Source: Eledone cirrhosa (taxonomy: Eukaryota). Taken from it: DNA of 64,000 nucleotides. The translations under genes were made by a program, and so were the position numbers. The notes beneath the pieces are model-generated. The model was given only the letters and a program-made list of their open reading frames with translations, did no database searches and was not told where the DNA came from. Positions 13,330 through 14,125 of this stretch are shown one piece after another. Numbering within the stretch: position 1 is the first letter of the stretch; the number at the start of each line of letters is the position of its first letter. The stretch spans positions 56,172,001 through 56,236,000 of the forward strand of contig OZ024743.1 of NCBI GenBank assembly GCA_964016885.1, written 5' to 3'.

Positions 13330-14125
13330 GTTGTTTTCTCAAAGCACTAGTGGCAATAGCGATGTATATATAAATGTATGTATTGTATATTTAATGATAT
13401 ACTGTATTTTTATTTTAAAACATTTTGAAGGCCCTTTGCTATTTAAGGTAGTGACTAACGTCACATACCTAGCTTCAGCAAAAACAAAGGGAAATAACCG
13501 ACGATCGTTTCTCACGTTTTAGTGATTATTAAGGTTATATATCCCTTATTTTTGCTGTGAGCTGTAGAAGCTGGATTCTTATGCAATTCCAATTATGTAT
13601 ATGAGCTGTTTAAACTCATTAACATACAGAGTGGTTTCCGACCCAGCAATAATTAGAAATGTATGTTGGTTCTCTGAAATAGCGAGGTATATATGAATGT
13701 ACGTATTGTATATTCAATAATATACTGTATGTTTATTTTAAAATATTTTGGAGGCCTTTCGCTATGAATTTAAGGTAGTGACTAACGTAACATGCCTAGC
13801 TTCCGCAAAAACAAAGGGAAATAACGATCGTCAGTTATATCCTTTGGCTTTTGCTGAAGCTAGGTATGTTACGTTACTCACTACATTAAATTCATAGAGA
13901 AAGGCCTCCAAATATTTTTTAATAAACATACAATACATACACACATACACACACACAAACAAACATGCCTGATATATATATATATATATATATCAGGCAT
14001 GTTTGTTTGTGTGTGTGTGTTTATTGTATGTTTATAAAAAAATATTTGGAGGCCTTTCTCTATGAATTTAAGGTCGTGATAAACATAACATACCTAGCTT
14101 CAGCAAAAGCCAAAGGATATTACAA
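13330..14125. mobile_element. Family C repeat in direct and inverted tandem pieces; related family at 52930-53505
   Basis: ATAGCGA-TATATA-AATGTA...TAAGGTAGTGACTAACG...CAGCAAAAACAAAGGG repeated at ~13356 and ~13680, inverted at ~13830-13940, direct again at ~14025-14120. Confidence 0.75.
13494..13538 (-). ncRNA. Hammerhead-like motif (TTAATAA core) capping a long hairpin
   Basis: Minus strand: ATAACC TTAATAA TCAC-taaaac-GTGA GAAA CGATCG TC GGTTAT; same position as the canonical HHR of the related repeat at 53081. Confidence 0.65.

Follow-up and report, generated by a model that had tools for sequence, protein, structure and literature searches.

Results

Hammerhead-bearing insertions in the window

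The 64-kb stretch of Eledone cirrhosa DNA analysed here (the window) carries insertions of non-coding units with hammerhead ribozyme motifs. The element at about 13 kb (13k; locus L001) has its main arm on the minus strand (13355..13825), which comprises 1.45 head-to-tail turns of a 327-nt non-coding unit (positions 2-149) and starts at unit position 2, one base past the predicted cut. An inverted, shortened arm on the plus strand (13823..13938) joins it at the helix III palindrome, and a third fragment (14022..14123, minus strand, unit positions 2-104) mirrors the inverted arm across a microsatellite. The element at about 53 kb (53k; L031) belongs to another subfamily, B. Its minus-strand arm (52939..53332) ends at the short fixed 3' end, unit position 142, and its inverted plus-strand arm (53361..53509) reaches the long fixed 3' end (unit position 168) and is followed by (TA)n. 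A distant, younger subfamily, J-CA, is represented by a minus-strand arm (965..1295; 96.7% identity to the J-CA majority) with an intact hammerhead (1144..1186, minus strand) that has a C3-G8 core and a C10.1·A11.1 mismatch. A second intact C·A hammerhead of J-CA lies on the plus strand (1297..1339), within an inverted arm (1293-1361).

Several other features were observed in the window. The 13k insertion is adjoined on its left by a diverged J-family fragment (12872-13011, minus strand, 72%) that has no ribozyme. The region 13046-13236, which resembles other loci at 71%, may be what is left of a Penelope-type end; at 13185-13250 (minus strand) it shows the halves of a hammerhead-like core and a stem II of 3 bp, and neither helix I nor helix III is clear. 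At 52842-52879 (plus strand), a minimal hammerhead with a canonical core and a G-C stem II precedes a TAATAAA-like end; it has no match to the superfamily profile and is probably the end of another Penelope-like family. The hammerhead at 51831-51869 (plus strand) has U·U at 10.1/11.1 and shares its core and stems exactly with the hammerhead of the two-frame Penelope-like element L313. Two long frames of 485 and 1,153 aa lie at 34768-39684 (minus strand), and the endonuclease, reverse transcriptase and zinc-finger matches of the longer frame indicate an apparently intact LINE. A 358-aa reverse transcriptase fragment of another non-LTR element is found at 8827-9900 (plus strand).

Rfam at its gathering score gave no match anywhere in the 64-kb window and thus missed all six hammerheads present there, so that families of this kind are under-counted. 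A relaxed hammerhead descriptor run on both strands returned only three matches (13k, 53k and 52842-52879), and repeat-finder output on the window was dominated by microsatellites.

Anatomy and state of the 13k and 53k hammerheads

The initial annotation had placed a hammerhead at about 13.5 kb, and the motif proved to be real: it is a type I hammerhead of subfamily A on the minus strand (13494..13538). Stem I pairs 13538-13533 with 13499-13494 (6 bp), and stem II pairs 13525-13522 with 13515-13512 (4 bp) and is followed by GAAA from 13511. C17 is position 13500, and the cut is predicted between 13500 and 13499. Helix III is an 8-nt palindrome (13508-13501) that forms no stable hairpin and has a predicted self-duplex energy of -10 kcal/mol, which is what cleavage as a dimer would predict. 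A long extension of helix I is predicted around the ribozyme (13472..13563, minus strand; z -6.2), with an internal loop next to the 6-bp helix I, and the circular folds of four subfamilies are arranged alike. The folding z-scores of the 13k and 53k regions (-6.2 and -5.4 on the minus strand) are similar on the plus strand and so uninformative about orientation; the minus strand was assigned from the core letters.

The core of the 13k copy (13532-13526) reads UUAAUAA, with a U3-A8 pair and an A at position 5. The initial annotation had read this as U3-A8 plus G5A in a probably dead copy, and had suggested that the consensus would be TTGATAA. Both readings hold. The family core is UUGAUAA, and G5 is found in 28 of the 30 best homology matches, a count that takes in segmental duplicates, and at 603 of 611 in contig depth (run X1), where the three sequencing contig sets represent one sample and serve only to confirm majority letters. 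G5A (13530) is private to the 13k copy, as is U10.1 (13525), where the family has C. G5 is essential to the hammerhead. The 13k copy departs at this position from the consensus YUGANRA...GAAA...UH, with which the majority sequences of 16/16 subfamilies agree, and it is probably dead.

The hammerhead of the 53k element (53077..53128, minus strand; predicted cut between 53085 and 53084) has a C3-G8 core, a G10.1-C11.1 pair and a private G-to-A change in stem II. The 13k and 53k repeats are homologous (68.5% over 413 columns, E 8e-31), and as had been noticed from the two copies, their flanks align and the hammerhead interior does not. The further proposal that all helices had been rewired while still pairing was borne out for stems I and III, which covary, and failed for stem II, where both window copies carry private mutations. 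The 3-bp GTA/TAC stem read at 53k is actually a 4-bp GUAC/GUAC stem in subfamily B, with G at 11.4 in 39 of 41 copies. Likewise, the TCAC/GTGA pairing read at 13k includes a private U10.1-A11.1 pair, whereas subfamily A mostly has C·A at this place. The private mutations in both copies therefore masked the C·A mismatch of the family in the comparison of stem II.

A superfamily with a common core

Homology searches recovered 30 loci of the 13k type (subfamily A, 87-92% to the window copy) and 30 loci of the 53k type (subfamily B, 94-96%). Pattern and homology searches together with chance matches in flanks extended these to 16 related subfamilies with alignable flanks. None of the 16 has lost U4, G5, A6, A9, GAAA, U16.1 or the pairing of 3 with 8 (C-G or U-A). 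Three helices surround the core and helix I is open-ended, as in type I hammerheads, and helix III is fully or largely palindromic in every subfamily. The inner three pairs of stem II are kept in 48/48 cells and those of helix I in 88/96, both counted with a parser that favours pairing. The C·A subfamilies F, E, A2 and A do not differ in their core letters, yet only 143 of 257 flank columns are invariant and stems I-III have been replaced in compensating pairs. Flank identity between subfamilies falls to 55-65% with the core kept.

Across ten subfamily majorities, 85 of 90 stem positions pair, compared with a shuffle mean of 60 and a maximum of 73 in 100,000 shuffles; the rows are related, and the comparison is not a p-value. 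The suggestion made from the two window copies, that the fold was under selection, is thus supported, and more strongly at the level of the family. RNAalifold on the plain alignment recovered stem II and two flank hairpins and missed helix I, because differences in helix III length misalign it; core-anchored parsing was used instead.

Intact-core patterns, several of them requiring the C and the A as well, underlie the discovery or enlargement of subfamilies E, F, A2, A3, A4, D, J, M and N, and this inflates both the apparent core conservation and the share of C·A. In 553 kb of unselected flanks, 22 matches were obtained, of which one was a partial piece and one had already been sampled. The others have recognisable cores (13 U·U, 3 G-C, 2 C·A and 2 A-U), and no subfamily with a destroyed core was seen among the 22, so the intact cores are not purely an artefact of the search. 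Counted by copies, C·A is in the minority. Counts from DNA searches are lower bounds, since the DNA search for subfamily G was empty despite 5,199 pattern matches.

The pair at 10.1 and 11.1

In 34 copies of subfamily A, from which duplicate loci and segmental-duplication clusters had been removed and some of which derive from core-demanding patterns, 10.1/11.1 is C·A in 25, G·A in 4, U·A in 3 and A·A in 2. Subfamily B has G-C in 30 of 41 copies and a compensated A-U in 9. By subfamily majority (n = 16), C·A occurs in nine, G-C in four, U·U in two and A-U in one, and the Watson-Crick 10.1-11.1 pair of type I hammerheads is accordingly absent from the C·A and U·U subfamilies. When the tree was made from the flanks alone, placing C·A at the root cost the fewest steps (5, compared with 7 for G-C); if it was not ancestral, C·A would need 6 origins. 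This tree has support values of 52-100, places N on a very long branch, uses two divergent copies each for M and N and three each for A4, G and H2, and could be distorted by recombination between subfamilies.

Among 13,199 matches of family J, with an identical inner stem II, 11,990 have U·U, 1,049 have C·A and 160 have anything else. The J-CA copies are about 95% like the J-CA majority, and the C·A of J is one evolutionary switch and not 1,049 events. A loose C..A pattern (4,557 matches, against 1,721 for the control) was rejected as a count of C·A hammerheads, since its excess comes in part from look-alikes without hammerhead stems, which we read as coding sequence or unrelated repeats. The flanks of loci L304 and L366 contain more B-related subfamilies with U·U at 10.1/11.1; stem II of L366 has the same four letters per side as the active Penelope-like element.

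Unit, ends and insertions

The unit is non-coding and joined head to tail, with lengths of 327 nt (A), 318 nt (B), 318 nt (C) and 345 nt (E). Within A-E, head-to-tail joins extend up to about 2 turns, and arms of up to 689 nt wrap past the end of the unit. Subfamily G forms long arrays with a period of about 310 nt, its 5,199 core matches being exact, and the repeat spacing of J is about 430-540 nt. Modelled as circles, the units of four subfamilies have predicted fold z-scores of -5.8 to -7.9 and a common set of hairpins, and the hairpins in the flanks covary too. Among frames of at least 170 aa at the first 60 loci, no reverse transcriptase frame is continuous with the unit; units join without a frame, in contrast to an autonomous Penelope-like element with its reverse transcriptase and GIY-YIG frame. 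Such an active element is present in the genome as L313 (4,211-nt tandem unit; many intact copies; a 775-aa reverse transcriptase/GIY-YIG frame in which the GIY-YIG match is weak). No sequence shared between the unit and L313, the one family compared, was detectable.

The 3' ends of arms pile up at unit positions 141/142 and 167/168 after the predicted cut, and in subfamily E at 149 and about 180 nt after it. These fixed ends usually adjoin (TA)n. We found 72 inverted adjacent pairs of arms; both ends could be classified in 39 of them, and 35 of these 39 combine a short with a long end. Two fixed 3' ends (a tail), an inverted shortened arm and a microsatellite target are the features of Penelope-type insertions.

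Many arms span one or two cut sites without interruption. The 5' ends of arms appeared enriched at the cut site in A and E (7 in 206 nt at risk, p 0.003, in a window chosen post hoc). This excess was not replicated in independent loci (11 in 795, p 0.12) and was not seen in B and C, and we dropped it as evidence of cleavage.

Three further observations concern the history of these insertions. Subfamily G (L205 33-660, L314-L323) forms very young arrays of the approximately 310-nt unit, with up to about 20 units in two back-to-back arms, as would arise from rolling-circle copying, and is the best candidate for an RNA circle. One arm at L044 (1446-2094) has a B-type and a C-type unit in tandem, indicating template switching or recombination between subfamilies. 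At L003-L021 (contig C14, 8.95-9.07 Mb), an old insertion of subfamily A has been amplified along with a tandem C2H2 zinc-finger cluster with a period of about 8-14 kb, and could be used to date those duplications.

Discussion

From our analyses, we consider the 13k copy a likely inactive hammerhead within a non-coding retrozyme of about 310-345 nt that is likely copied by Penelope-like retrotransposon proteins, and whose C·A source elements were likely still able to cleave themselves; we put the probability of this reading at roughly 0.7. The 13k copy itself is a fossil, and its value lies in the series of subfamilies to which it leads and in a C·A core that is open to testing.

The homologous units, covarying stems, invariant core, two fixed 3' ends, inverted arms and (TA)n neighbours can be read directly from the genome, and they are consistent with the following course of events. 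Multimeric transcripts, longer than one unit, would fold with two palindromic helices III pairing as a dimer, and the ribozyme would cleave after N17. The resulting monomers may be ligated into circles. A Penelope reverse transcriptase/endonuclease would nick (TA)n DNA and copy the RNA from two internal starts about 26 nt apart, which would produce arms both in tandem and inverted. Selection would act on source elements only, such that new subfamilies fix compensating stem changes and inserted copies decay. Since G-C, A-U, U·U and C·A all occur at 10.1/11.1 across the superfamily, the N7 metal ligand of G10.1 would be dispensable here.

Among hammerhead pairs, only 15.1-16.1 is described as more conserved than 10.1-11.1 (PMC3088659), and G10.1 is a crystallographic metal site (PMC6961537, PMC6795133). 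A pyrimidine at 10.1 lacks the metal-binding N7, whose removal cost about 30-fold in a published analogue test (PMC6795133). U·U at 10.1/11.1 was active in published tests (PMC3088659; PMC7229834) and gave higher activity than any other mismatch there (PMC3088659), which suggests that C·A may be slow. Given the size of the loss without N7 and the activity of U·U, it is plausible that C·A works, though more slowly. A full-text search, with a key paper on Penelope hammerhead variants and several supplements outside its coverage, found no C·A at 10.1/11.1, and excerpts of PMC11014351 and PMC9901934 hold nothing on this pair. C·A is likely a working variant of the hammerhead, and we think it probable that the C·A source elements cleaved. 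We also lean, though only slightly, towards the broader proposal that C·A is a functional and previously unlisted natural core state that was ancestral in the superfamily and later changed twice to U·U and twice to Watson-Crick pairs.

The most serious alternative is that C·A hammerheads have little or no catalytic activity, that copying proceeds from uncut multimers, and that the fold is kept as a shape bound by a Penelope protein. It would fit the unreplicated excess of 5' ends at the cut site, the many arms that run across cut sites, the covariation of hairpins beyond the ribozyme, and the U·U state of the two largest young families counted. A precedent is given by Xenopus retrozymes, of which 8 of 9 dimers were uncleaved in vitro according to the portion of the report available (bioRxiv 10.64898/2026.07.22.740005). 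However, shape alone does not explain why the unpaired catalytic letters and the 3-8 pair persist in 16/16 subfamilies while flanks diverge to 55-65%, nor does it sit well with the lack of a destroyed-core subfamily among the matches in unselected flanks; a circular template would likewise leave no pile-up at the cut site. We regard loss of catalysis as unlikely, and self-cleavage of the source elements as the better reading.

Less probable still is that the C and the A are two insertions, an unpaired base between A9 and G10.1 and an extra A before G12, around a stem II of 3 bp. The pair that follows 10.1/11.1 is G-C in E, F, M and N, like a canonical 10.1-11.1 pair, a base between 9 and 10.1 is usual in the minimal hammerheads of Penelope-like elements (PMC4209133), and text from Figure S3 of the same paper includes one 'AGAAA' entry in a row that is not attributable. 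The following pair is nevertheless C-G in A, A3 and A4 and A-U in J, and C·A falls in the register that U·U has in J and G and that G-C has in D, the stems and loops being equally long, which argues for a true mismatch. That the units are terminal repeats of truncated autonomous Penelope-like elements, or ordinary satellites, and not independently mobile is very improbable: solo truncated terminal repeats are common (PMC4209133; bioRxiv 10.64898/2026.07.22.740005, both in part) and the sequence inspected extends only about 3 kb around each copy, but the units join directly head to tail in arms of up to 689 nt that wrap beyond the unit end, the first 60 loci have no unit-continuous reverse transcriptase frame of at least 170 aa, and the copies are dispersed with fixed 3' ends.

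If self-cleavage by C·A hammerheads is correct, the G10.1 metal ligand is not indispensable to natural hammerheads, and searches whose descriptors demand a paired base of stem II overlook entire retrozyme families. Persistence of a natural C·A form while the stems were repeatedly rewired would mean a broader catalytic core than is known, and would probe the importance of the metal site. The 16 alignable subfamilies constitute a natural mutational series, in which the J sisters differ exactly at 10.1/11.1 (U·U and C·A).

Comparison with known systems

The class of element is known, and retrozymes, U3-A8, U·U at 10.1/11.1 and covariation within a genome have all been published. In particular, U3-A8, covarying families within one genome and a dimeric helix III were reported for the hammerheads of Penelope-like elements (Cervera and de la Pena 2014, PMC4209133). 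These, in the excerpts at hand, have a highly conserved G10.1-C11.1 pair, with one further base following A9, and lie beside a coding frame, whereas the E. cirrhosa unit is frameless, has a 6-bp helix I with a long extension and is mostly mismatched at 10.1/11.1.

In its insertions, the unit resembles Penelope elements (Craig et al. 2021, PMC8557442; Frangieh et al. 2024, PMC11167929), which according to parts of these papers share with it partial tandems, an inverted 5'-truncated arm, a tail at one end, an internal start of reverse transcription and microsatellite targets. It differs from them in being non-coding and in having a tail of about 26 nt (about 30 in subfamily E).

Among natural core variants (Perreault et al. 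2011, PMC3088659), covariation to U3-A8 and a natural and active U10.1·U11.1 are described, and C10.1·A11.1 is absent from the main text as far as it was available. In the hammerhead of the cave-cricket satellite pDo500 (PMC2837043, in excerpt), compensatory changes in stems I and II served as evidence of selection, as here. The changes at 10.1/11.1 in pDo500 are compensatory pairs among close variants, whereas in E. cirrhosa whole stems are replaced and the mismatch is fixed.

The elements also fit the animal non-LTR retrozymes (Cervera and de la Pena 2020, PMC7229834; Li, Clavereau, Pollet 2026, bioRxiv 10.64898/2026.07.22.740005), which the accessible portions of these works describe as likewise non-coding tandem units of about 300-350 nt. 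As here, they have one type I hammerhead per unit and strong self-pairing, and mobilisation by Penelope-like elements was proposed for them; in the axolotl family Amex2, a hammerhead with U·U at the base of helix II cleaves (PMC7229834). The E. cirrhosa elements, which are known from genomic sequence alone, differ in that the two-end signature of Penelope is seen directly in their insertions and in that they form 16 alignable homologous subfamilies, nine of them with C·A.
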